NCBI RefSeq assembly: GCF_003334305.1
Contig: NZ_QOWS01000018.1
DNA from: Escherichia coli
GTDB lineage: Bacteria; Pseudomonadota; Gammaproteobacteria; Enterobacterales; Enterobacteriaceae
Reading direction: 5' to 3' (one strand)
Length of the DNA: 64,000 nt
The position numbers and the translations under genes were made by a program. Positions within the stretch are counted from its first letter, which is position 1. Every line of letters begins with the position of its first letter. Below the pieces are notes generated by a model, which was given only the letters and a program-made list of their open reading frames with translations, was not told where the DNA came from and ran no database searches. Below, piece by piece: positions 24,894 through 37,438 of this stretch.

Positions 24894-25499
24894 TTAGCCG
24901 TTAAGTTTAACTGCCAGACCTGCGACATATTCCCCTTGATAACGAGCAATAGACAGTTCTTCCTGGCTTGGCTGGCGTGAGCCGTCACCGCCTGCGATGG
25001 TTGTTGCGCCGTACGGCGTACCGCCGCGAACCTGTGAAACGTCAAATAATTCCTGCGCTGCGTAGCCAATGGGGACAATTACCATGCCGTGATGCGCAAG
25101 GGTCGTCCAGGTTGAAGTAATAGTTTGTTCCTGACCGCCGCCAGTACCGGTGGAACTAAAGACGCTCGCCAGTTTTCCGTATAGTGCGCCGGAAGCCCAC
25201 AGGCCGCCCGTCTGGTCGAGGAAGGTACGCATTTGACCGGACATGTTGCCAAAGCGGGTAGGTGTACCAAAAATAATGGCGTCGTAATCGGCCAGTTCTT
25301 GCGGGGTTGCAACCGGTGCAGTTTGCGTTTTACCGCCTGCTTTTTCAAATAATTGCGGCGGCATGGTTTCCGGTACACGCTTAACGACAACTTCTGCGCC
25401 ATCCACTTTGCTTGCACCCTCAGCGACTGCGCGTGCCATCGTTTCAATATGTCCGTACATGGAATAATAAAGCACTAGTATTCTTGCCTTAACACTCAT
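24894..25499 (-). CDS. wrbA: NAD(P)H:quinone oxidoreductase WrbA with an element-encoded N-terminus ([12 protein letters not shown] in place of the recalled K-12 MAKVLVLYY)
   Basis: 201-aa flavodoxin-like ORF; the first codons and the RBS (aggaga) lie in the inserted element, the rest is host wrbA. Confidence 0.9.
25469..25475. other. attL core candidate (AAAGCAC), left copy of the junction direct repeat
   Basis: Host wrbA sequence ends and element sequence begins right after this heptamer. Confidence 0.55.
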
Positions 25500-25550
25500 A
25501 TCATTGTTCTCCTGTTCAATGAACCACTTAGATAAGCATAGTCCGAAGAT

Positions 25551-27194
25551 ATGAAGCTGCTAGTGACATACATCAGGTGGAGTACTAAAGAGCAAGACTC
25601 AGGAGACTCCTTAAGACGACAAACAAACCTCATTGATGCTTTCTACTCTAAGCACAAAAACGATTATTACCTTCTTCCTGCTCACAGATACGTTGATAAG
25701 GGTAAATCTGGTTTTCACCAGCAACATAAGAATCAAGGTTCTGACTTCAGACGTATGTTTGAAAATGTTATGTCTGGGGCTATTCCAGAAGGTTCCCTGA
25801 TTGTTGTAGAGAACTTTGACCGCTTCAGTAGGGCTGATATCGACACAGCTATAGATGATGTCAGGCAGATACTGAGGAAGGGAGTCTCTATACTGACTCT
25901 GGGAGATGGTGAACTCTACGACAAGTCAGCATTAACAGACCCTGTGAAGCTGATTAAGCACATCATCATAGCTGAGCGAGCACATCAGGAATCTCTTGTT
26001 AAACAAAAGCGTATAGCTCAGGTCTGGAACCATAAAACACAGCTTGCAAGAGAACTTAAGAAGCCTATGGGTAAGCAAGCCCCCGGATGGTTAGAGCTAT
26101 CAGAAGACGGTTCACACTACATCGTTGATGAAGATAAAGCGTCACTGGTGAATATCATCTATGACAAGCGTCTTTCTGGTATGTCGATGTTTGCTATCTG
26201 CAAATGGCTAAACGAACAAGGTTACCCGACCATTAATCAGCGTAAGGTCAGAATATCCAAGACTAAGAAACCGGATGGTAACTGGTCAGCTTTAAGCGTT
26301 AAACACATCCTGACTTCACGAAGTGTATTAGGTTACCTTCCCGCTAAGATTTCTACAGAAGACCGTAAAACAGTGTTACGTGAAGAAATTGAAGGGTTCT
26401 ATCCTCAGATTGTCACAGATTCTAAGTTTTACGCTGTACAGCAACTGTTAGAGGAAACAGGGAAGGGGAAAACATCCAGCGGTGACCACTGGTTATACGT
26501 GAACATACTGAAGGGGCTTATCCGTTGTAAGTGTGGGCTTGTAATGACTCCTACAGGGATACGTAAACCCGTTTATCAAGGTACTTACCGTTGCAATGGT
26601 AATAAGGAGTCCCGTTGTAGCTACGGTACAGTGTCCAGAAAGTTACTTGATACACAGCTTTGTAGTCGTCTGTTTAGCAAACTGTCACAGCTACACGATG
26701 AAGCTACCGATACAGCTAAATTAGATGAACTACAAAGAAGATTAAACACCGTTGATGGTGAACTGGAAAAACTCACTGAGACGCTGATACAGCTTCCTAA
26801 CATCACTCAGATTCAAGAAGCACTACGGGTTAAACAGGAAGAAAAAGATGAACTGATAGTTCAGTTATCACGAGAAAAGGCGAGGGTAAAATCTGTATCA
26901 AGCTTGGATTTAAGCGGTCTTGATATGGAGTCTGTAGAGGGGAGAACTGAAGCCCAGATTATCATTAAGCGTCTGGTGAAAGAGATTGTTGTTTCTGGTA
27001 ATGAAAAGCTGGTGGATATATATCTTCACAATGGAAATATGATTCGTGGTTTCCCTCTTGATGGTAAAGATGACCACACCTTAACGCTTGAAGAAGCAAC
27101 CGATGAGATGCAGTCACTAGATGATATGCTTATTTTTGGTGAACCAGTAACAAGGATTTATCCTGCTGGTGATATGGAAGAGGTGGACGCTTAG
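25551..27194 (+). CDS. Large serine recombinase (integrase candidate)
   Basis: 547 aa; N-terminal resolvase-type catalytic motif YIRWSTKEQ (catalytic Ser), Cys-rich zinc-ribbon region (CKCG...CNGNKESRC) and coiled-coil segment typical of large serine recombinases; gene abuts the junction. Confidence 0.85.
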
Positions 27195-27979
27195 TATTTT
27201 TTATTAGGGTTCACTGAGTACTTTTTAAGCTTTGAAGCTACTCGACCAGCGTTACTATTAGCATTGGTGACGTTGGTTTTTTCAGCTTCTGTTAAGTCTG
27301 AATAGTCCAGCTTCCAAGCCTTATTACACTTAATCTGAGCATCGAGAATATCATTTCTGATAGCTGGAGCGTAACCGGATACATCGCTAATACTCATTAG
27401 CTCTTTGCACGATAGCATAGGCGCGTTATTGCGTTCAGTGGTCACGTTACCTGCATTCTTCTTACTGGTCACACCACCATCATTCGTAGTCGCGGCTTTT
27501 CCAGTTGCAGCCGAGATATCAGTCTGCCCCACAACAGCTTTGAAGTTAATTTCCTGAAAAGTTAGTTGGATTCTTAATCCGTTTGAAATTCCAACATCTT
27601 TAGAGGCTTTAAAACTTGTGATAATGGAATCATCAATTTTAATTCCGTCTTTACAGATGACAGAAATAATCTGCTTCTGGTCACGCCAGTTTTCCAGAGT
27701 GTCAATGAAGTTCTCTACTAATTGACCCTGACGAGTTAATAGTAAGCTTCCTTCATAACCAACTACAACGACACCACTGATAGTGATTGTTCTGGGTGCT
27801 CTTTGAACATTATCTGTGACGGTTTGCCCTGATTGCATGTTCTGTGTAGTCACCTGCATAGGGCTATCAAATTCCATATTTTCAGTTGCTGATAAGGTTA
27901 AGAAGGCATCTACATTATCTCTTAAGTGGAAGTAAACGCCATCTTTGCCACTGTAGCGGATTTGATTGCTAAAAATCAT
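27191..27979 (-). CDS. Hypothetical protein, possibly distal-tail (Dit)-like phage tail component
   Basis: Follows the tape-measure-like gene in the canonical order; start taken at the second Met (MIFSNQ), which has an AAGGAG RBS; homology not verified. Confidence 0.35.
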
Positions 27980-28059
27980 TAAATTCTCCTTTGATTTCAA
28001 AGGCTTAGTGTATTTTAATCATTTTTAACCAAGCCTTTGATATATAAGTATTTTCTCTG

Positions 28060-28128
28060 TTAAGCGTGAGCTACGTAAATTCTATTTTTCAGTGCGGGTA
28101 TTAACTTTGCTTTATTCACGTAGAACAC
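28060..28128. repeat. Direct repeat copy A (69 bp, internal dyad GCTACGT...ACGTAGC) upstream of the Dit-like gene
   Basis: ttaagcgtgagctacgtaaattctatttttcagtgcgggtattaac... about 88 percent identical to copy B. Confidence 0.75.
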
Positions 28129-28135
28129 CGTTAAA

Positions 28136-30304
28136 TCAATCATCTTCTGGGAATGATGAACTTAATAACGTAGCTTCTGCATATTGGTCGTAGATATTAC
28201 TGCTAAAGGTCATAAAGCTGGTTTCATCTGGTTTAATGGCAACTTCACCACCAAGTGAAACTTTCACAGGCTCCTGAATACGCTTACTTAAAGCAGAGAT
28301 TTCATCCCTCAGACCCTGAATATCTGCACTCGTTAATGCTGAATCTTGCTTAATGTTGTTTAATTCTGGATGATTGAATCTTGCAATATTCATTGTGGCA
28401 TTGTTAAACAATTCACCCATTGAACTAAAAATTCTACTCCATCCTTCGTTAATCACATTCGGTTTATTAGGGTCACCAGAATACACAGGATTAAAGTCAC
28501 TACCCACACCTACCCCAGATGGATGCATATTAGCGTTTTTGACTACTTCCTGATTCATAAAATCCAGTGCTTTCTTCAATGCATATAAACCAAGAGTGAC
28601 ACCTCTGATTTGTGGAATCATTGAAGCTAATGCTAACGCTGTTTCATAACCGTCATCAGCATAACCAATTGCAAGAGCACTACCTACACCACCAGCTACA
28701 CCTTTCAGTTTTCCACCACCTTTACCAGTAGCTACCTGACCAGCCACCTGATTAGCTCTTGTACCTAACGTTGTGATTGCTCTTGTCAGGTTCATAACCC
28801 CTGTAGTAGCACTGAATAGTGTCTTTGCAGATAACGCTATAGCAAGACCTTTGACGAAGTTGATAAATCCATCACCGACTTCATCAAGTAGCTTTCGCTT
28901 AGTGTCATCAAGGCTGTAATAGGTCTTCTTAATCTGTAGAATCCAGCCTTCAAGGTGATTGTTAAAGATACGGATGTCATCTACACCAGCTTTAAGCATG
29001 TCGATAAGTCCACCGATAGCATCACCAGCGATAGAAGAACTCATACCCATTTCACTAAGCAGGTTACTCAGGCTGGATAAGAAGCCATTTAGCTCATCCT
29101 GTGAACCTGAGAAGATTTTCACCATCGTATCATCCCAGTTGTTAGCCAGTTTCCCTAAAGCTGTCTGAGTGCTCTTAGCGACTTCAGCCCAGCCACCCGC
29201 TTTATCAATCATCAAGCCCATCTGTTTAGCGACTTTAGGGAGAGTATCACTACTTAAAATCTTCCCGTCTTTCATCGCTTTATCAAGCTCTGTAGCAGTC
29301 ATACCCAGTGCTTCAGCGAATAGCTTAAATGCACCAGCCATACGGTCACCTAACTGACCACGAAGCTCTTCAGCCTGAATCTTGCCCTTGCTCGCCATCT
29401 GCTCAAATGCTTTCAAAATGCCGTTTAGCTCATCGTTAGAAAGCCCCATTAAGCGACTCATAGCCGTTGCATTACCAAATAGCTCCTGTGTCTGTTCCTG
29501 TGACATAGAACCCTGAGCACCTGCTGCAAACTTAGCGTAGCTTGATAGCCCTTCAGAGATATTAAGACCTGTCTTGTCTGCTAAATTTCGAATAAATACC
29601 TCAGCTTCAGATGCTTTATCACCAAGTACAAACTTAGCGGCTCTCTGTGCGGAATCTCGTTTAAGACCTGCATTCATGATGGCCTTGTAAGCGTTAAGAG
29701 CACCCATCACAGAGTAAAATGCACCAGATAACTTGATTGCATTGCTTGCAAGATTATTAAATGCGTCGCTTGTATTGTTAATGCTGGTGGATGTATGACC
29801 TTTAGCTTTAGCAATTGCTTCTCTGACTGAAGCATTTAACTGAGTCAGCTTCTCATTGAATTTTGAAGAATCCATTGACCCAGCTTTAGCAGATAGCCCG
29901 TAAAACTGAGATTTGATGTATTTCTGCAAAATAGGGTCAAAGCCTTTTAGCTTAGACATATTAGCTGAGTAAGCCGCTGTGATTGCTCTGTTGCCGCTAA
30001 TTCGTGGCTGTCTTGGTTGTCTAAGTGGCTTTAAAGTGTCATCAATTTCCGTTTTAATCTTAAACGCTCTAGTGTTTTTAAGACGCTGCTCAATCTTGGA
30101 AACAGTTTTATCGACATTCTTTTCCATTAGTTTGAGAGAATCATTTAAAGGCGTAGGGTTAACTCTGAATGCCTTATTTAGTCGTTTCTCAATTCTTGAT
30201 GCGATTTGCATCGTTTGTTTCTCGGCTTTTTCCAAGCCTTTTAAAACTTTCTGAGAGCTAAAACTTAGCTCAATCAAAAAATCATCAACTTTAAATTGTG
30301 CCAT
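28136..30304 (-). CDS. Tape-measure-like protein (phage tail length tape measure family candidate)
   Basis: 722 aa; coiled-coil N-terminus, central region resembling the tape-measure core (...AEELRGQLGDRMAGAFKLFAEALGMTATELDKAMKDG...), Gly-rich hydrophobic segments. Confidence 0.55.
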   Translation of the reverse strand: MAQFKVDDFLIELSFSSQKVLKGLEKAEKQTMQIASRIEKRLNKAFRVNPTPLNDSLKLMEKNVDKTVSKIEQRLKNTRAFKIKTEIDDTLKPLRQPRQPRISGNRAITAAYSANMSKLKGFDPILQKYIKSQFYGLSAKAGSMDSSKFNEKLTQLNASVREAIAKAKGHTSTSINNTSDAFNNLASNAIKLSGAFYSVMGALNAYKAIMNAGLKRDSAQRAAKFVLGDKASEAEVFIRNLADKTGLNISEGLSSYAKFAAGAQGSMSQEQTQELFGNATAMSRLMGLSNDELNGILKAFEQMASKGKIQAEELRGQLGDRMAGAFKLFAEALGMTATELDKAMKDGKILSSDTLPKVAKQMGLMIDKAGGWAEVAKSTQTALGKLANNWDDTMVKIFSGSQDELNGFLSSLSNLLSEMGMSSSIAGDAIGGLIDMLKAGVDDIRIFNNHLEGWILQIKKTYYSLDDTKRKLLDEVGDGFINFVKGLAIALSAKTLFSATTGVMNLTRAITTLGTRANQVAGQVATGKGGGKLKGVAGGVGSALAIGYADDGYETALALASMIPQIRGVTLGLYALKKALDFMNQEVVKNANMHPSGVGVGSDFNPVYSGDPNKPNVINEGWSRIFSSMGELFNNATMNIARFNHPELNNIKQDSALTSADIQGLRDEISALSKRIQEPVKVSLGGEVAIKPDETSFMTFSSNIYDQYAEATLLSSSFPEDD

Positions 30305-30322
30305 TGTTCATATTTCACCTCT

Positions 30323-30390
30323 TTAAGCGTGAGCTACGTAAATTCTATTTTTCAGTGTGGGTATTAGCTTTACAGATTTCACGTAGCACA
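30323..30390. repeat. Direct repeat copy B upstream of the tape-measure-like gene
   Basis: ttaagcgtgagctacgtaaattctatttttcagtgtgggtattagc...cacgtagcacac. Confidence 0.75.
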
Positions 30391-30505
30391 CATAGGATTC
30401 GATAGAAGACTATCTCATATACAAAAAAGGAGAGTTACCGATGTCACTCGATAATCTCTCCCGTAGATTTTTACCCAACCAATTCTATTAGAAGCTAATC
30501 TCAAA

Positions 30506-30721
30506 TTAATGGTAAACGTAAGAATACATCCCATCATCACCTAAAATCTGTGCGTCACATGGTAATTTATCTAAGCACCATGAAGGAATCTTACGTACCT
30601 TTGGTTTATGTGAGGTGATAACTTGATGCTGATTTTTAATTCGTAGCTTTGGTTTAGTCTGAAGCTTTAAGTTCTCACAAACAGACTTAATAAGTTCATA
30701 GCGTTCTGTTAAATCAATCAT
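30506..30721 (-). CDS. Hypothetical small basic protein
   Basis: 71-aa ORF co-oriented with neighbouring element genes; no recognisable motif. Confidence 0.4.
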   Translation of the reverse strand: MIDLTERYELIKSVCENLKLQTKPKLRIKNQHQVITSHKPKVRKIPSWCLDKLPCDAQILGDDGMYSYVYH

Positions 30722-30744
30722 TCACCACCTCTTTTAATTCATAG

Positions 30745-31455
30745 TTAAAGTGCCTTGCTATATTTCTGAGAAATCTTCACTAACTGCTCAATATCAGCCT
30801 GCATAGCAATCTTCTTCTGCGTTTCATATGCAGAAATAAGCTCTTTCATAGCCTGAAGCTCTCTTGAGAGATACAACTTAACATTTTCAAGTTGCTTGTT
30901 ACGTGATGCCAAGATGTTCTGTCTGGCAAGTTCAGCGAGTTCTTCATCGCTCTTATTAGTCGTGTAAATAAACTGACCAGCACCCCTTGAAGCTTTAACC
31001 ATCTTCACAATTCGATATCCAGCAGGAAGACTACTAATCACGGCTGCGACGTTTTCTTGAAAAGTACCAAAACCATCATTGTCTTCGTATGTGAAGTAAA
31101 CATACGGCTTCTGTGACAATTCATCCTGAATCTCAAATTCTGACGGCTCAATAGCTGATTGCATCAGGGTAACTTTACTGTAAGCATCATCTAGTTTAAT
31201 ACGCTGTGCTTTTAGCAGTGGGTAATATTCACGCTCAAGCTCAAGTAATGCTTCAGTTTTGCATACATCAGGCATCTCTTGAGGCTCAGGAGACACAAAG
31301 ATGATTTCCTTTGGTGACATTCGGATTTCTTGCTCAAGCTTAATTCTTTCATCGTGTTCTTTACGCTGAATAGCGATAGCTGGATGTTCAGTCTGTGGCG
31401 ACCAGTCACCGAAGCTATCAATCACTTTGCCATTAATGTAAATATCATTTGTCAT
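30745..31455 (-). CDS. Hypothetical protein with C-terminal coiled coil
   Basis: 236-aa ORF with a good RBS (aagagga); no recognisable domain. Confidence 0.5.
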   Translation of the reverse strand: MTNDIYINGKVIDSFGDWSPQTEHPAIAIQRKEHDERIKLEQEIRMSPKEIIFVSPEPQEMPDVCKTEALLELEREYYPLLKAQRIKLDDAYSKVTLMQSAIEPSEFEIQDELSQKPYVYFTYEDNDGFGTFQENVAAVISSLPAGYRIVKMVKASRGAGQFIYTTNKSDEELAELARQNILASRNKQLENVKLYLSRELQAMKELISAYETQKKIAMQADIEQLVKISQKYSKAL

Positions 31456-31933
31456 TGTTTTTTCCTCTTCTAAGCTAAAGTATTTCAGTTTTTAAAAAGC
31501 ACACCTGACAGCCTATCTAAACTTAGAAGAGACTTAAAAGGCGGTTTGCCAAGTATGCTTTTTAAAAGCTGAAAAAGCCCTAGATAACTAAAACGCTATA
31601 AAGGGCTAAGGTGAAGAAATTAAAACATCTAAAGGATTCAATAACGAATGAACAAAGACTTTTCGAGATAGCCTCTCAGGTTGTATAAGAGGCCATGTAG
31701 CGAAAAGCATTGCACCTTTCAGAATGTTCGGTATAGAACATACCTCACCAACTCAGAATATCCATCCATCGGATTATTGAAATAAATAAGAGAGAAATTC
31801 TCTCTATAATTAAAATTATGTCATGCTTAAGGTTATTTGTCAACAGCTTTTTAACAGATTGGTAACATTTATACTTTAATAGATGCACCTGCAATCATAC
31901 CAATCAACACAAAACAGAGAATCACCAATTCCA

Positions 31934-32257
31934 TTAATGCACCACCTTCGAATCCGTAACCAGAATATTATCGCTGTACAAAATTGCTATAGCCGCCTTG
32001 AGATATTTTTCAGGGCTAACGCTGTATTTGTTCGTTTGCTCGACAACCAATCTTTTCATGTTGCTGTCTTTAATTGGTAGCATCATTCGAGGCTCGTTAA
32101 ACTCCACCGACTGAATAAAGTCAGAGATGCTTTCCGCATTATCAGTCATTAACTCTAACAACTTATCAAAGTCAATGCTAACACCTACATCAGTGAAAGC
32201 CTGAATCATCATGGCGGTGTCGGTATCAATAAAAATCTGTAATTCGTAATTGTTCAT
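31934..32257 (-). CDS. Hypothetical acidic protein
   Basis: Start taken at the ATG (MNNYELQIF) preceded by AAGGAG; the track ORF begins at an upstream TTG. Confidence 0.45.
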   Translation of the reverse strand: MNNYELQIFIDTDTAMMIQAFTDVGVSIDFDKLLELMTDNAESISDFIQSVEFNEPRMMLPIKDSNMKRLVVEQTNKYSVSPEKYLKAAIAILYSDNILVTDSKVVH

Positions 32258-32412
32258 TTTTAAAATCTCCTTTTTACCAGACCTCCTCAATCGCTCTGTA
32301 ACGAGCTAAACAGTCTTTTTCAGGGGTAGCCTGTACAGTGGTATTACCCACCCTAAAATAAGATAGTTTTTTGCGTCAGAATGCGATTGAGAGCGTCTGA
32401 GAAGCTGTTTTT

Positions 32413-32700
32413 CTAATTTCTCTTAAAGTCTCGGACTTGCATAAGATTTTTTGGTCTGGTATCGGCTCTGTTACCATTTCGATGGATAATTTGCTTGTTG
32501 GATTGATAGCCATGATAAAGAAACCAGACAACATATTTCACGTAGAAAGTATATCGGCCTATATTAAATGTTTTGTTGCCGTAGTCGTCGGTGTTTATCG
32601 TGACTGACTCTCCATCAGACCAGCACAGGGAATCACTGGATTCATCATAGATAAGGTGTTCTGCAAAATATCTTCTAACATCTTCATTCCAAGGTTTCAT
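32413..32700 (-). CDS. HNH endonuclease-like protein
   Basis: 95 aa; C-terminal IIHRNGNRADTRPKNL resembles the HNH core (I-H-x-N/D-G-N-x-x-D-N-R-x-x-N-L) of phage HNH nucleases. Confidence 0.5.
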   Translation of the reverse strand: MKPWNEDVRRYFAEHLIYDESSDSLCWSDGESVTINTDDYGNKTFNIGRYTFYVKYVVWFLYHGYQSNKQIIHRNGNRADTRPKNLMQVRDFKRN

Positions 32701-32912
32701 AAAACCTCCTCACCCCAATAACCTAATTCAATCTTGTGACGCTCAAACCATTCCGGTTTAACTGCTGTTTTCAGTACTTCATTTGGGCCAATGGCTTTAA
32801 TGAAAATATCTTTTGAGTTATGGATGTCACCGAATCCGTTTCCTTCAATCAGGAGGTCGGAGATGTAGCGAATCATTTTATCCGTGTGGTATTCAAAGGT
32901 AACGCATAGCAT
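32697..32912 (-). CDS. Hypothetical protein
   Basis: 71-aa ORF with start/stop overlap to both neighbours (operon-like coupling). Confidence 0.4.
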   Translation of the reverse strand: MLCVTFEYHTDKMIRYISDLLIEGNGFGDIHNSKDIFIKAIGPNEVLKTAVKPEWFERHKIELGYWGEEVL

Positions 32913-33193
32913 TAAACCTCCAGAGACAGCTTGTGAATCTTAAGACTCAATAGACGGGCAATATCAATTTTAAAGCCGTTAAGTCCCTTCAAAGTATCTA
33001 AAGCGTCCTGAGTAATTCGGATGTGTTTACGACCTTTAGAGACTGGATATTTAAGTAAATCCGACTCAGTAACCTCTTTAGCAATTGCAAGCTGCATAAC
33101 AGTCTGATGAGGTAAGTTAGTAGCTCGTTTAATTCTGGCAAGCTCGTTAAAAGCTTCCTCTGAAATGCGGGTTAAAGTGTGTTTGTTTTTCAT
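32912..33193 (-). CDS. Putative ribbon-helix-helix DNA-binding protein
   Basis: N-terminal HTLTRISEEAFNELARIKRATNL pattern (beta-strand then helix) typical of Arc/MetJ/CopG-type regulators. Confidence 0.4.
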   Translation of the reverse strand: MKNKHTLTRISEEAFNELARIKRATNLPHQTVMQLAIAKEVTESDLLKYPVSKGRKHIRITQDALDTLKGLNGFKIDIARLLSLKIHKLSLEV

Positions 33194-33194
33194 T

Positions 33195-33749
33195 TTAAAA
33201 TTCCTCTGTAACTAAATACGGGTCAAATTCAAAGTCTGGTTCACTGGTTGTAAGGCTGATATTTCCAACTTCCGCATGATGATTAATTGTCTCAATAACT
33301 TTCATGCAAATAGTGGCTAAGTTAGCGCAATATTTATCACTTGGTAATTCGTAGCTAAGTCTGGTTGCTTGTCTTTGAAGATGGCTCGTCACTGTGCTTG
33401 AACTAATCTCATCAAGACTTCGCAGTAAATAAAAAACCTTCCGGTGATAATTATCTCTTCCAAGACTGCGACAAGTACCGATAATTACATCTTCAATTCG
33501 TGGCGGTAATTGCTCGTAAGAATCAAAGCCCATCAAGAAAGTTTTTAAAGTATTCTCTTTTTCTTTGCGTGCTGGCATAAATCTGTCTCGTGGCGTAATG
33601 CTACGAATGACCGCTTCAATGTTCTTACGTTCGGATTTGCTAAAGGTTGGGACTTCGTAGCTGGTGGGGGTGTCTGTGTGGCTGTAACCGTTGTGTCTGT
33701 TGCGTTCTCTTGATGCCTGAAGCATCGCTCTAAATTCTCTGTCGTTCAT
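33195..33749 (-). CDS. Hypothetical protein (first gene of the leftward operon)
   Basis: 184-aa ORF with no recognisable domain. Confidence 0.45.
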   Translation of the reverse strand: MNDREFRAMLQASRERNRHNGYSHTDTPTSYEVPTFSKSERKNIEAVIRSITPRDRFMPARKEKENTLKTFLMGFDSYEQLPPRIEDVIIGTCRSLGRDNYHRKVFYLLRSLDEISSSTVTSHLQRQATRLSYELPSDKYCANLATICMKVIETINHHAEVGNISLTTSEPDFEFDPYLVTEEF

Positions 33750-33850
33750 TCATAAGCTAGTCCTTATAATTGTTAATTCTCTGTTAACTTATATATACAA
33801 TACTAGCATTTTCAAAGACTAATGTCAAGCATTTTTTAACATTTCATTAA

Positions 33851-33866
33851 CATCTGTGGTATAATG
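33851..33866 (+). promoter_or_regulatory. Candidate extended -10 promoter (TGgTATAAT), rightward
   Basis: ctgTGgTATAATgg in the divergent region between the 184-aa gene and the small membrane ORF. Confidence 0.45.
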
Positions 33867-33992
33867 GTTCTATGGGGAGAGTAAAATATAAAGGCGTGGC
33901 TATGAGGTTTATTCGATAGGGGTTGGTACAAGCCCAACCAACCGAATCAACTATGTATGTCACATGGTATTGCATTGCACACAGGAAATTTA

Positions 33993-34169
33993 ATGGTAAA
34001 TCTCCCTCCTGAACTGGGGTCACCTGATGTATGGGCTGGTGGAGGTATCGGGCTGATTGCAGGTCTGTTACTCCGCTACGTCCTTGTCAGAGTGCTTGTT
34101 GTGTTCCGATTGTTCGGTCGTACATGGACGCTTGACCTTAAGGATAATGAGCACACAGAACCCCGTTAA
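33993..34169 (+). CDS. Small single-pass membrane protein (58 aa from the RBS-preceded ATG)
   Basis: Hydrophobic stretch GGGIGLIAGLLLRYVLVRVLVVF; AGGAAA RBS before the MVNLPPEL start. Confidence 0.35.
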   Translation: MVNLPPELGSPDVWAGGGIGLIAGLLLRYVLVRVLVVFRLFGRTWTLDLKDNEHTEPR

Positions 34170-34211
34170 GCTCCCTTCAAATCCCCCTGTACGAGATGGC
34201 ATAGGGGTGTC

Positions 34212-34250
34212 TTTAGCATTTTGTGCTATCTATTAAAAAATAACTTGACA
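34212..34250. promoter_or_regulatory. Operator-like dyad TAGCA-N5-TGCTA followed by ACTTGACA (module 1)
   Basis: tttagcattttgtgcta ... acttgacagaa. Confidence 0.45.
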
Positions 34251-34289
34251 GAACCGGAAAGCTGTATCTATCAGGTATTCACCTCTCTG

Positions 34290-34460
34290 ACAGTAACTTC
34301 TAAAAGTTCTTATTTTTCAATGAGTTGTAATCACCCATATATAGAGAACTGACAAGTCTCTTCACAATTAACTCTGTAACCTTAACAGTGATTTCTAAAA
34401 ATGCTTATTTTTCAATAAGTTGTAATTAGCCATATATAGAGAACTGACAAGTCTCTTCAC
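34290..34460. repeat. Two tandem copies of a 76-bp direct repeat (period 95 bp) in ORF-free DNA
   Basis: acagtaacttctaaaagttcttatttttcaatgagttgtaatcacccatatatagagaactgacaagtctcttcac versus the second copy, about 88 percent identical. Confidence 0.8.
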
Positions 34461-34777
34461 GGAGAACTTCCTGGACTCACTAAGATACAAGGCGATAACC
34501 CCAGAAAGGGAGAGCCACCTTCTAATTGGTATTGTTATGAGGATGCTTCATCCGAATCATCTACCAATCCCTAAACCGACTTCTTAAACAATCTTTACAG
34601 ACCCCGTTCACCAGTCTCAATATTTTTATTTCTCGCTCTTCGTTTGTTGCTCGTTTCTATTATTGAGGGGGTTTGAAAAACCTCTGTAAAATAACCCTTC
34701 CAGTAAAAAGCGAATAACCCCAGAGAGGGGGAATCGCCTCTTTAACATTCTCATAATCAGTGCTCTATATGAGAATT

Positions 34778-35446
34778 TCAGCCCAACCTTTGAACAATCT
34801 TGTAAGTGGTGCTTAGAGGCATTCTTAGCGATTCTGCGATGCTCTTGACGGATTGCCCTTGGCCATGCAGTTTAATCAGCCTGTCAAGCGTCTGTGCATC
34901 GTGTATATGAGGTCTTCCACGTAAACCACCCCTGTTAACCACGGCAAGTAAAAGCATTGTGTCGCCACAATAGATTGTTTGTGTAACTTCAACCTTCGGT
35001 TTACGGGGTGTGTTCCTGTATATCAAAACGCAACTTGCAAACGGTGAACGCACTACAACACCTTTCTTCCCTGCTGGTGGAAGGTATTTGACTGCTCGGT
35101 GTAACGTTCGAATCTCATGCAGAAAGGGGTTTGTATATACACACCGAAGCCAGTAAGTTGTCTTTGACCTGTGCGGAACCAGACATACACACACATCAGC
35201 TTCATGGGATTTTAGGAGGAACCTTTCAGCCATGCTAAACGGCGGGTTAACGAAGACCCGTTCACCAACCCATGATTGATTGTGAATATCATCGGTGAAC
35301 CGTGGCAACAATGCGTCATGCTCAGTTGCAGCACCATCCATCGAAAAACCAAATTCACGGTGTAGGTTACGAAATAAACGATACGGTGTACGCCAGTCAT
35401 CAGAACCACCATGATAACGACCGACATTGATTATTGGATGTGACAC
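34778..35446 (-). CDS. Dam-family (phage-type) DNA N6-adenine methyltransferase with a C-terminal HTH extension; GTG start
   Basis: N-terminal DWRTP and catalytic NPPF motifs of the phage Dam family; C-terminal about 45 aa (GRPHIHDAQTLDRLIKLHGQGQSVKSIAESLRMPLSTTYKIVQRLG) resemble the GRP-linker plus HTH of resolvase/invertase proteins. Confidence 0.7.
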   Translation of the reverse strand: MSHPIINVGRYHGGSDDWRTPYRLFRNLHREFGFSMDGAATEHDALLPRFTDDIHNQSWVGERVFVNPPFSMAERFLLKSHEADVCVCLVPHRSKTTYWLRCVYTNPFLHEIRTLHRAVKYLPPAGKKGVVVRSPFASCVLIYRNTPRKPKVEVTQTIYCGDTMLLLAVVNRGGLRGRPHIHDAQTLDRLIKLHGQGQSVKSIAESLRMPLSTTYKIVQRLG

Positions 35447-35485
35447 AAGCGAAGCGCCCCTCTTAGTATATTTCTTAATCGTCTC

Positions 35486-35546
35486 TTTAGCATTTAGTGC
35501 TTTTTGTTAAGTTTAGCACTTTTTGCTAAAGACAAAACACTTGACA
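35486..35546. promoter_or_regulatory. Operator-like dyads (TTTAGCA-N6-TGCTAAA and a second half-degenerate copy) followed by ACTTGACA (module 2), upstream of the methyltransferase gene
   Basis: tttagcatttagtgct and tttagcactttttgctaaa, then acttgacaaaa. Confidence 0.5.
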
Positions 35547-36020
35547 AAATGGTAAGATTGTTCACATGACCTTACTTAACAGATTCTTAAGAGCTTTGAA
35601 ACGAACTGTTTAACAAGGTCACTACCTCTGGTCTTATCGTTCCCTCTCTTCTTGGTAGTTCTGTTAAGTATCTTTTCAGGTATCTCTTACAGTCACTGTT
35701 AAGATAGAACCTACCTTCGGTTTCATGGTTCTCTTCCTCCCGTTAAATATCCCTTCACAGTCAGACTAAATAACACCTCTGTAGTTTCTTGGTAGAATCT
35801 TTCAAGGTAACTTAACTCTGAGTTTATGAAGTTGACCTTAGTCAATGTTTGTGAAGGTGTTACAGAGCATGTTCTCTAGGTCTGTGTAGCTCACTAAGCG
35901 AGAGAGGGGATATGTGACCATAGGGGAACCCCTCCTGTTAAAAGTTTCTTGATGTTATCATCACAATATGTATAATCACCAACTGTACAGACACCTTAAC
36001 GGTTTCTCTACACCTCACTA

Positions 36021-36089
36021 TGGCTAGGTAGGGTATGGTTTAGCTTGGTACGGCTAGGTTAGGTCTGGTTTGGTTAGGTATGGGTGGAT
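36021..36089. repeat. Degenerate G/T-rich short tandem repeat (GGYTAGGT-like units)
   Basis: tggctaggtagggtatggtttagcttggtacggctaggttaggtctggtttggttaggtatgggtgg. Confidence 0.6.
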
Positions 36090-36120
36090 TGTCGTAGCCA
36101 CGTTAAAAATCGACTTATAG

Positions 36121-36145
36121 GGACTCTTTCGGGAGTCCTTTTTAG
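36121..36145 (+). terminator. Intrinsic terminator, plus orientation, with no upstream plus-strand ORF
   Basis: ggactc-tttcgg-gagtcc stem-loop followed by ttttt. Confidence 0.6.
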
Positions 36146-36347
36146 TTTGTATAAAATCTGTACAGGAGTTATCAGGCTTCTAAAATTTTTATAAAAAATA
36201 ATCAGACCTCTTCTAAGCCTCTTCAACCAAATCTTTCGAAAATATCTGACAGATGTCTGTAGCTGCTAAGTACCCGTCACACCAGCTATGTGACCCCCTT
36301 GGCAAAAAAGCCAAATATCAGCTACATCCATGTAACTATTCAGTAAC

Positions 36348-36899
36348 TTATTTAGCAAGTCTGTAATAAGTTGCTCTAGAGATTCCTAACTCTTCCTGAA
36401 TCTGCAACCTCGTCTTACCTTGTGAAATAAGCGTCTGTACAGCCTCTGAAGAAGCCTTTACAGGCCTCCCCATATGTACCCCTTCAGCTTTAGCACGTTC
36501 AATACCAGCCTTTCTACGCTCTGCTATCAAGCTTCTTTCAAGCTGTGCCAACGTTGACATAATGCCTAACATTGCTTCACCCATAGCGCTTGATAAGTCA
36601 AACCCTTCTCTAAGGCTGATAACTGTCACACCTTTAGCCTGTAGCGCTTTAACCGTTGATAACACATCAATTGTGTCACGTCCAAGACGGTCTACAGCTA
36701 CCACAACTACGGTGTCACCTTCTCGTGCATAAGCTAACAAACTACTGAAACCGTTTCTTAAAGAAGCTTTGACAGAACCACTGACAGCTTCATCAGTGAA
36801 CCATTTAGCAATGTTGTACCCTGCCTCTTCAATTTGCATTTGCTGGTTAGTGATGGATTGGTCATCTGTACTCACCCTGCAATATCCAAGTATCGCCAT
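36348..36899 (-). CDS. Small serine recombinase (resolvase/DNA-invertase family)
   Basis: 183 aa; N-terminal catalytic motif GYCRVSTDDQ, resolvase core, C-terminal GRP linker plus HTH. Confidence 0.85.
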   Translation of the reverse strand: MAILGYCRVSTDDQSITNQQMQIEEAGYNIAKWFTDEAVSGSVKASLRNGFSSLLAYAREGDTVVVVAVDRLGRDTIDVLSTVKALQAKGVTVISLREGFDLSSAMGEAMLGIMSTLAQLERSLIAERRKAGIERAKAEGVHMGRPVKASSEAVQTLISQGKTRLQIQEELGISRATYYRLAK

Positions 36900-36912
36900 A
36901 CATCCCCCTTAG

Positions 36913-37040
36913 AAGTCTCAAAAGTTAGTCTCATAAGTTTAGCTGTCTCATAATCCAAAAACAACCTTTTGAGACTACTTGAGGGTGCATTCTACCGTTA
37001 CGTTGAAAGTGTCTCAAAAGGAAGTCCTTTTAAGACTGGT
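36913..37040. promoter_or_regulatory. Iteron-like array of GTCTCAWAAG motifs (at least four direct, two inverted) immediately upstream of the small recombinase gene
   Basis: gtctcaaaag, gtctcataag, gtctcataat, inverted ttttgagact, gtctcaaaag, taagact within about 125 bp. Confidence 0.6.
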
Positions 37041-37416
37041 TATGAAGGAGCTATGAAGATTTTAGGAGGGTAACTATAACCATCACTTTCTAACTTTCAC
37101 GTAGGAAATCGTTAAGTTTCTTGATAGTTACACCATGTGACCAACTATCTATATATCGTTATATAGCCCTGTATATAACACTTTTCTAGGAGTCGAGAGA
37201 GGGACGACTAACACGATACAGTTTACCCTGAAAAGAGACTTCACAGATTCTCTATATATTTCAATAAGTTAGGCTAAAAAGAGACTATACCGATACTGTA
37301 TAGAATCTGTGTAGAATTGCTTAGATACTTGGAAAAATGCCTTTAAATTGAATAGGTACTAACCTGTTTATGTCCTGTTATTAACAGGTAGTTGAATGTA
37401 CGTGTTTAGCTATGTA

Positions 37417-37438
37417 AAAGCACCAGAACTTTAGCCAT
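37417..37438 (-). other. attR core candidate (AAAGCAC) plus the displaced native wrbA start codon and first five codons
   Basis: Minus strand reads ATG GCT AAA GTT CTG GTG C..., the recalled native wrbA 5' end, now separated from the gene body by the element. Confidence 0.6.

Follow-up and report, generated by a model that had tools for sequence, protein, structure and literature searches.

A 64,000-nucleotide stretch of Escherichia coli DNA (assembly GCF_003334305.1, contig NZ_QOWS01000018.1), hereafter the window, carries at 32413-33749 a block of four minus-strand open reading frames (ORFs), which we analyzed together with the chromosomal island in which they lie; the island family looks like an apparently undescribed satellite of a virulent phage. 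In the ORF listing, the four ORFs sit exactly where the original prediction, made from the sequence alone, had placed them, and its claim of tight coupling was borne out by the coordinates, by the three gene junctions, and by a ribosome-binding site at each of them. The genes and the signals nearest to them are as follows (related elements are denoted by L numbers):

33749-33195, minus strand: p184, 184 aa, the first gene of the operon
33193-32912, minus strand: p93, 93 aa, predicted tandem ribbon-helix-helix (RHH2 fold) DNA-binding protein
32912-32697, minus strand: p71b, 71 aa, no fold or function assignable
32700-32413, minus strand: HNH gene, 95 aa, minimal HNH_3 protein, termed the H allele
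33828-33800, minus strand: predicted sigma70-type promoter, TTGACA-17-TAGTAT with a TG extension (10/12 consensus matches plus TG in a consensus scan)
33786-33768, minus strand: conserved leader GTTAACAGAGAATTAACAA, after the operon promoter
31934-32290, minus strand: p118, 118 aa (107 aa from an internal ATG), 122 bp downstream of the HNH gene

At the p184/p93 junction, TAA is followed after 1 base by ATG, with GAGGAA 8 nt upstream of the p93 start; p93 and p71b overlap in TAATG, with GGAGG 5 nt upstream of the p71b start; and p71b and the HNH gene overlap in ATGA, with GAGGAGG 6 nt upstream of the HNH start. Every downstream start in the block is preceded by a strong Shine-Dalgarno sequence. 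The p71b protein is given 59 aa in the RefSeq annotation of strain A7 and 71 aa in another genome; the 71-aa start is the better supported, because GGAGG precedes it and it is annotated so elsewhere. In pairwise comparisons among five related elements, the ratio of nonsynonymous to synonymous substitutions (dN/dS) was 0.04-0.3 for all four genes in all comparisons but one, the exception being two nearly identical p71b copies that differ by hardly any substitutions. These low ratios, together with the recurrence of the block in 383 of 5,426 complete E. coli genomes, argue that the ORFs did not arise by chance. Thus, the four genes are real, coupled, and conserved, and they are under purifying selection.

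The operon promoter was nearly identical in L005, L007, and L021, and the 250 nt upstream of p184 showed 86-96% identity across elements. The gene order within the block varied, with the HNH gene standing before or after p71b depending on the element. Downstream of the block, p118 was conserved in all E. coli-type elements compared, and a site scan found no terminator-like site in the 122 bp between the HNH gene and p118; thus, p118 is probably the fifth gene of the transcription unit, and the unit is probably longer than four genes. Between p118 and the next gene, which encodes a 236-aa protein (p236), we observed a near-consensus promoter (TTGACA-17-CATAAT with TG) and an inverted repeat with 28-nt arms (31483-31574 / 31815-31843 region), and positions 31913-31930 are an inverted copy of the 18-nt leader motif that trails the operon promoter. 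The presence of these three signals suggests that a second, co-regulated transcription unit may start between p118 and p236.

The island and its relation to Felixounavirus

With queries of 1.6 kb and of 12 kb, the window was 100% identical to the chromosome of E. coli strain A7. Comparison with an empty wrbA-ymdF site delimited the island, and the following features define it:

25476-37416, no strand: whole island, about 11.9 kb, low G+C, at the 5' end of wrbA, between wrbA and ymdF
25551-27194, plus strand: large serine recombinase (integrase), 547 aa (PHROG 95 integrase, E = 5e-78)
27191-28000, minus strand: Dit_like tail-tube-initiator homologue, 269 aa (PF21821 in homologues)
28136-30304, minus strand: alternative tape-measure protein (TMP), 722 aa (PF20155 TMP_3 in homologues)

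The core AAAGCAC stands at both island junctions (25469-25475 and 37417-37423). The insertion lies in the first codons of wrbA (24894-25499), to which the island provides a new start and N-terminus, and wrbA stays open after the insertion as a 201-aa ORF, compared with 198 aa. Resolvase, Recombinase, and Zn_ribbon_recom domains were found in homologues of the large serine recombinase. Neither the annotation nor a PHROG search revealed capsid, portal, terminase, sheath, tube, or lysis genes in the 11.9 kb.

The two tail proteins connect the island with the Felix O1-type phages (Felixounavirus). The island TMP shared 32% identity with its Felixounavirus counterpart (E = 1e-72), both ends of the protein being conserved, and the Dit_like protein shared 76% amino-acid identity with the Felixounavirus protein encoded directly after the TMP, being nearly identical to it over the first ~170 residues; a 519-nt stretch of the island tube-initiator gene was 93-95% identical to Felixounavirus at the nucleotide level. 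In the Felixounavirus Bas63, gp17 is the TMP and gp18, which follows it, is the baseplate tube initiator (PMC12609058), and the order from TMP to tube-initiator gene is the same in the island and the phage. The island therefore has the profile of a satellite, because a serine-recombinase island too small to encode a virion carries its own versions of two Felixounavirus tail proteins. The features of a satellite that we found were an integrase with an attachment (att) core and a circularization (attP) junction, and too few genes for a virion, yet tail genes of a specific phage group. By the sequence comparisons and by analogy with known satellites, Felixounavirus is the presumptive helper, and the island may undergo helper-dependent induction and packaging and may interfere with its helper.

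A further link was found upstream of the operon, where 51 nt (34523-34573) are 100% identical to phage NBEco004, and the longer non-coding stretch 34523-34590 matches NBEco005 and EC106 at 91-94% identity. The NBEco005 record begins and ends with the same 651 nt, and the island match falls at 242-307 of that terminal repeat; Felixounavirus packaging with direct terminal repeats of ~580 bp has been described (PMC8303462, PMC11737134). The 51-nt stretch was rejected as a universal packaging signal of the family, as it is absent or relocated in other elements. Folded as RNA, it did no better than shuffled sequences (z = -1.1). The phage-shared stretch behaves like a small exchangeable, mobile cassette, and it attests to repeated exchange of DNA between the islands and Felixounavirus. 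Further matches of 28-40 nt, at 82-92% identity, to the large Felixounavirus non-coding region were observed at 35610-35679, 30392-30419, 37144-37175, 34479-34510, and 34706-34745; among these short matches are terminator-like hairpins that follow the island's methyltransferase gene.

The family was present in ~7% of the complete E. coli genomes (the 383 noted above), always in the chromosome and with at most three copies per genome. A matching architecture with different recombinases was found at tonB-yciI (L002), yecE (L003), and dinB (L007), and also in L005, and the four-gene block was present in every E. coli-type element compared. Some copies of the island were disrupted by insertion sequence (IS) elements. 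Distant islands in other Enterobacterales (L008/9, L012-14) retained the large and small serine recombinases, a p184 homologue, and a TMP.

With respect to mobility, the predicted attP junction GCTATGTAAAAGCACTAGTATTCTTG, which the integrated form lacks, occurs in three metagenome contigs. One of these, L021 (ERZ506742 NODE_633), has 11,233 bp with a 55-bp identical end overlap, which implies a circular molecule of 11,178 bp; the recombinase region of L021 shared 98% nucleotide identity with that of the window, and its gene set was complete, with p184, p93, an HNH gene of the second allele described below, and a p71b-like gene. The other two, L022 and L023, also carry the predicted junction, and L023 comes from a 23-kb contig that possibly represents a dimer or tandem copy. 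The junction indicates that the element has excised or recombined as a unit, whether as a circle or as a tandem copy. Two 11.3-kb contigs were rejected as free circles: L007 is an integrated copy, because it ends in sequence that we take to be dinB, and L005 shows no end overlap and nothing that marks a circle.

The remaining genes and repeats of the island are as follows:

33750-34777, no strand: largely non-coding region, ~1 kb, upstream of the operon
33957-34169, plus strand: divergent small ORF within that region, ~62-70 aa, one hydrophobic helix; promoter-like site at 33836-33865
34290-34365 and 34385-34460, no strand: 76-nt direct repeats, 91% identical, 95 bp spacing
34778-35446, minus strand: phage-type N6-adenine DNA methyltransferase, Dam-like (PHROG 111, E = 9.5e-25; PADLOC orphan methyltransferase, E = 7e-9)
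36348-36899, minus strand: small serine recombinase, resolvase/invertase type (ORF and annotation), with homologues in the distant islands too
30745-31455, minus strand: p236, 236 aa, between the operon and the TMP gene, conserved across elements
30506-30721, minus strand: p71a, 71 aa, between the operon and the TMP gene, conserved across elements
28060-28128 and 30323-30391, no strand: 69-nt direct repeat, 88% identity, just upstream of the tube-initiator and TMP genes

Along the direction of the operon, the order is thus small serine recombinase, methyltransferase, 1-kb largely non-coding region, the four genes, p118, p236, p71a, TMP, Dit_like gene, and, on the opposite strand, the large serine recombinase. 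The largely non-coding region showed 89-96% nucleotide identity across elements, and the 76-nt repeats within it, 89-95% conserved, are a candidate origin or regulatory site. The divergent small ORF shared 92-96% amino-acid identity with its counterparts in L002, L003, L005, and L007, with conservative changes relative to L007, and it could encode a small membrane protein or toxin. The methyltransferase gene was absent in L003, L005, L007, and L021; because an AP2/ERF-domain protein on the opposite strand takes its place in the yecE-inserted element L003 (13527-14051), this slot appears to hold variable cargo, and the methyltransferase is, by this comparison, cargo that is replaced or absent in other elements. 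Inverted repeats of 21 nt (35660-35680 and 37227-37247; 90% complementary, 1.5 kb apart) flank the small serine recombinase, which is the layout of a Hin-type invertible switch, and one arm overlaps a weak Felixounavirus non-coding match (29 nt, 83-86% identity). The 69-nt repeat contains the 10-bp dyad CTACGTGAAT...ATTTACGTAG, is partly conserved in other elements, and may be a common regulatory site of the two tail genes. No family matches were obtained for p236 and p71a in PHROG, NCBIfam, and PADLOC searches, and these genes were rejected as tail chaperones for lack of similarity to those of Felixounavirus. In a tblastn search of 50,697 phage records, a concatenate of p236, p118, p71a, p71b, the HNH protein, and the small membrane ORF had no match at E <= 0.01, and Rfam recognized no RNA family in the island.

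The four proteins and the two HNH alleles

The first gene encodes an all-helical protein with a conserved acidic/aromatic C-terminal tail, and p184 is the only one of the four genes that is retained in distant relatives of the island. That neither p184 nor p71b contains a recognizable motif, as had been noted from the sequence, agreed with our searches: p184 had no family match in Pfam, PHROG, NCBIfam, or PADLOC, and its profile gave nothing usable among the PDB sequences, and p71b had no match in any of these five. The phage records contained a single match to p184, an Aeromonas phage protein of unknown function. In the distant islands and in the phage-like contig L011, a small helix-turn-helix (HTH) protein instead of the RHH protein follows the p184 homologue. 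Since a small DNA-binding protein always follows p184, RHH here and HTH in the distant elements, the recurring unit consists of p184 plus such a protein; the HNH gene and p71b appear to be lineage-specific additions to it. Genes of the p184 family also occur in true phage genomes, namely L011 and L019 (Aeromonas phage 85AhydR10PP), where each follows a long non-coding gap of 0.85-1.5 kb; in L019, a resolvase gene lies ~7 kb upstream of the p184-family gene. Homologues of p71b were found at 38-97% identity in all E. coli-type elements, with a dN/dS of 0.04-0.11 between diverged copies.

The call of an RHH regulator for the second gene stood at the level of the fold and found no significant RHH family profile match in Pfam or NCBIfam. 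The structure model of p93 was confident and showed a single chain with two beta-alpha-alpha repeats (RHH2 fold), closest to TraY and DndE and with no extra toxin-binding tail. The model thus points to a single-chain tandem RHH protein of the TraY/DndE type, not of the dimeric antitoxin type. Sequence-level support for this was faint (DndE at E = 0.006 in NCBIfam, far below the cut-off, and at E = 0.33 in Pfam), and p93 had no match in the phage records. The leader at 33786-33768 and its inverted copy at 31913-31930 are candidate p93 binding sites.

The HNH nuclease call proved sound, as residues 53-89 of the protein match Pfam PF13392 (HNH_3; E = 2.6e-8). The protein also matched the HNH endonuclease profiles PHROG 99 (E = 1e-8) and PHROG 959, and it keeps the His-Asn-Asn motif IIHRNGNRADTRPKNL, with the His and Asn, as we read the motif, at canonical spacing. 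The 95 aa showed no second domain, the single Pfam domain running to residue 89; the protein is, as far as its sequence tells, devoid of the attached DNA-recognition domain typical of free-standing homing enzymes, for which 95 aa leave no room. Its best phage relatives in the tblastn search shared 31-35% identity at E values of 0.2-5. Matches of the HNH alleles to PDB sequences were antibodies only and were judged spurious.

A second allele of 90 aa aligned with the H allele without gaps at ~40% identity and matched PHROG 959 at 5e-5. Its motif is IIF[KR]DGNKRNCHPNNL where the H allele has IIHRNGNRADTRPKNL, so that the catalytic His is replaced by Phe. Two exact sequences of this Phe allele each occurred on at least 1,000 contigs, compared with 78 contigs for the exact sequence of the window, and the dN/dS of the Phe allele was 0.05-0.12. 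The Phe allele is thus the commoner one, yet it is under strong purifying selection. Because the commoner allele lacks the catalytic His and is nevertheless strongly conserved, the selected function in most elements cannot be DNA cutting. The genes are ordered p93-p71b-HNH in the window and in L003, and p93-HNH-p71b in L002, L005 (with one extra gene), L007, and L021; the HNH gene is absent from the distant islands that retain a p184-family protein.

A proposed control module and its alternatives

We consider it very probable that the four genes belong to a satellite-like element. More specifically, we propose, with moderate confidence and from sequence comparison, that they stand at the promoter-proximal end of the main operon in a satellite whose helpers are virulent myoviruses of the Felix O1 type and which resembles the PLE islands of Vibrio cholerae. 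The operon would be transcribed by the host and would serve as the early control or DNA-handling module of the satellite. How the work is divided among the four proteins can be proposed only tentatively. Because p184 is the sole one of the four that is kept family-wide, always before a small DNA-binding protein, we proposed it as the core factor, most likely a regulator bound to DNA or a protein that initiates replication or packaging. The protein p93 would be its partner, binding DNA sequence-specifically, or else the regulator of the operon; a TraY-like tandem RHH fold is typical of proteins that mark a defined site and bend the DNA there for a nicking enzyme. An accessory role would fall to the HNH_3 protein, derived from a homing endonuclease and lacking a DNA-binding domain of its own: the H allele might retain the ability to nick, with p93 or another partner choosing the site, and the Phe allele of most elements would act without cutting, by binding or blocking, as does CapR of PLE. 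It is possible, though unlikely, that p93 and the HNH_3 protein make up a split, two-subunit, site-specific effector within the control module of an undescribed family of Felix O1-type satellites, in which the RHH protein would recognize a site that the HNH protein nicks in the His allele or blocks in the Phe allele, the target being the helper genome or a processing site of the element itself.

Several observations weigh against the proposed control or DNA-handling role. No informative structural relative of p184 was found, and the non-coding DNA upstream of the operon does not co-vary with p184 variants, which makes specific binding of p184 to that DNA less likely. L002, L007, and L021 lack the phage-shared stretch, which is duplicated in L003 and relocated in L005. 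Nowhere in the island did we recognize a replication initiator, a gene related to terminases, or a factor for capsid size; the attP junction could also arise from tandem copies instead of free circles; and the partnership of p93 with the HNH protein is purely conjectural.

The original prediction had pointed to toxin-immunity, anti-phage, or packaging-associated modules. Homology of all four genes to routine phage replication or packaging genes was not found, and the idea of a self-contained toxin-immunity or anti-phage module did not withstand the comparison. The layout of an RHH protein plus a nuclease would indeed fit a stand-alone toxin-immunity or abortive-infection cargo, with the HNH protein as a DNA-damaging toxin, the RHH protein as antitoxin or repressor, and the two other proteins as accessories; however, none of the four proteins had a PADLOC match, no NCBIfam toxin-antitoxin family was hit, and p93 is modeled as a single-chain tandem RHH protein of the TraY/DndE type without a toxin-binding tail. 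Moreover, there is no fixed pair, as the HNH gene adjoins p93 in some elements and p71b intervenes in others, the HNH gene is absent from distant islands with p184, and no E. coli-type element compared lacks the block, which is unlike variable cargo. The commoner allele, with Phe for the catalytic His and a dN/dS of 0.05-0.12, speaks for a selected function other than cutting, and we regard a toxin-immunity cargo as quite improbable. The HNH gene could instead be a selfish, free-standing homing endonuclease that invaded a real three-gene operon twice and is of no use to the element. HNH_3 is a typical domain of phage homing endonucleases, one of the two ~40%-identical alleles stands before p71b and the other after it, distant islands lack the gene, and the broken active site of one allele would be expected of a decaying selfish gene. 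We nevertheless hold this to be improbable, since proteins of 90-95 aa lack the DNA-recognition domain that a homing enzyme needs, the His-less allele is common and under strong purifying selection, and the start/stop overlaps with its neighbors tie the HNH gene into the translation of the operon.

A packaging module was considered as well, in which p184 would be a small-terminase-like or packaging-specificity factor acting on the adjacent non-coding region and the HNH protein would help the helper terminase cut island DNA, as in some cos phages. The position of the operon next to a conserved 1-kb largely non-coding region that holds a stretch identical to part of the Felixounavirus terminal repeat, the small, helical p184 with a conserved acidic/aromatic C-terminal tail that resembles a partner-binding motif, and the location of p184-family members always after a long non-coding region are consistent with such a role. 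Yet p184 has no sequence or fold similarity to terminase small subunits, so that positive homology is lacking; several elements do not have the phage-shared stretch; most HNH alleles are unable to cleave DNA; and, to our knowledge, the HNH proteins known to assist terminases are not of the HNH_3 family. We judge packaging very improbable as the role of the module. It is scarcely credible that the island is a decayed prophage fragment and that the ORFs left in it serve no coherent function: tail genes are present without capsid, terminase, or lysis genes, and some copies are IS-disrupted, but one 11-12-kb architecture occurs at four or more insertion sites with different recombinases, the genes are under purifying selection, and an attP junction and a circular contig exist.

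Comparison with known systems and significance

Among the systems that have been studied, the nearest counterpart of the island is the PLE group of Vibrio cholerae. PLEs use a large serine recombinase for integration, and they possess the nickase NixI and CapR, a nuclease-dead relative of homing endonucleases. The island resembles them in being a small chromosomal island with a large serine recombinase and a virulent myovirus as the presumptive helper, and nuclease-derived accessory proteins occur in both. Every PLE has genes for an alternative TMP and for a baseplate hub protein, with 19-41% identity to those of the helper (PMC11838301), and PLEs use homing-endonuclease-derived proteins against it (PMC10055350). 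The island differs in its enterobacterial host, in Felixounavirus as the presumptive helper, in a nuclease-like protein of the HNH_3 rather than the T5orf172 type, and in that no RepA_N initiator or capsid-remodeling gene was recognized in it. The term PLE-like is thus used by analogy only and does not denote membership of the PLE family by sequence homology.

The putative E. coli satellites described in 2023 (PMC10055350), the published elements that come nearest, share with the island large virulent myoviruses as predicted helpers and the possession of a TMP and a baseplate component in the absence of most tail genes. In contrast to the island, however, they encode a RepA_N initiator together with major capsid and decoration proteins, and they integrate mostly by tyrosine integrases, beside tRNA genes; one of the phages matched to them, Inny, is a Justusliebigvirus, whereas the island matches Felixounavirus. 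At the protein level, p93 shares 4-14% identity with the tandem RHH proteins TraY, DndE, and VirC2 and lacks a conjugation or phosphorothioation context. The window allele has the HNH_3 domain and the His...Asn...Asn motif of homing endonucleases such as I-HmuI, which is a strand-specific nickase, but at 95 aa it is without a DNA-binding extension, and its sister allele is without the catalytic His. We found no description of the island family, its proteins, or its accessions in the literature, although most subscription journals lay outside our search and an earlier description is possible.

Typing, biocontrol, and therapy directed at Salmonella and E. coli make wide use of Felix O1-type phages. 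If our reading is true, an island with its own versions of two tail proteins in about 1 of 14 E. coli genomes would be a natural source of resistance against these phages, and through it strictly lytic phages would also drive the transfer of genes. The PLE paradigm of serine-recombinase integration, an alternative TMP, and nuclease-derived effectors would then extend from Vibrio to the genetically easy E. coli. For the switch and DNA-handling functions of the element, no better candidates are at hand than the four genes, which include p184, a family of no known function; the two naturally occurring HNH alleles, one with the catalytic His and one lacking it, offer a ready-made test of the domestication of a homing endonuclease.

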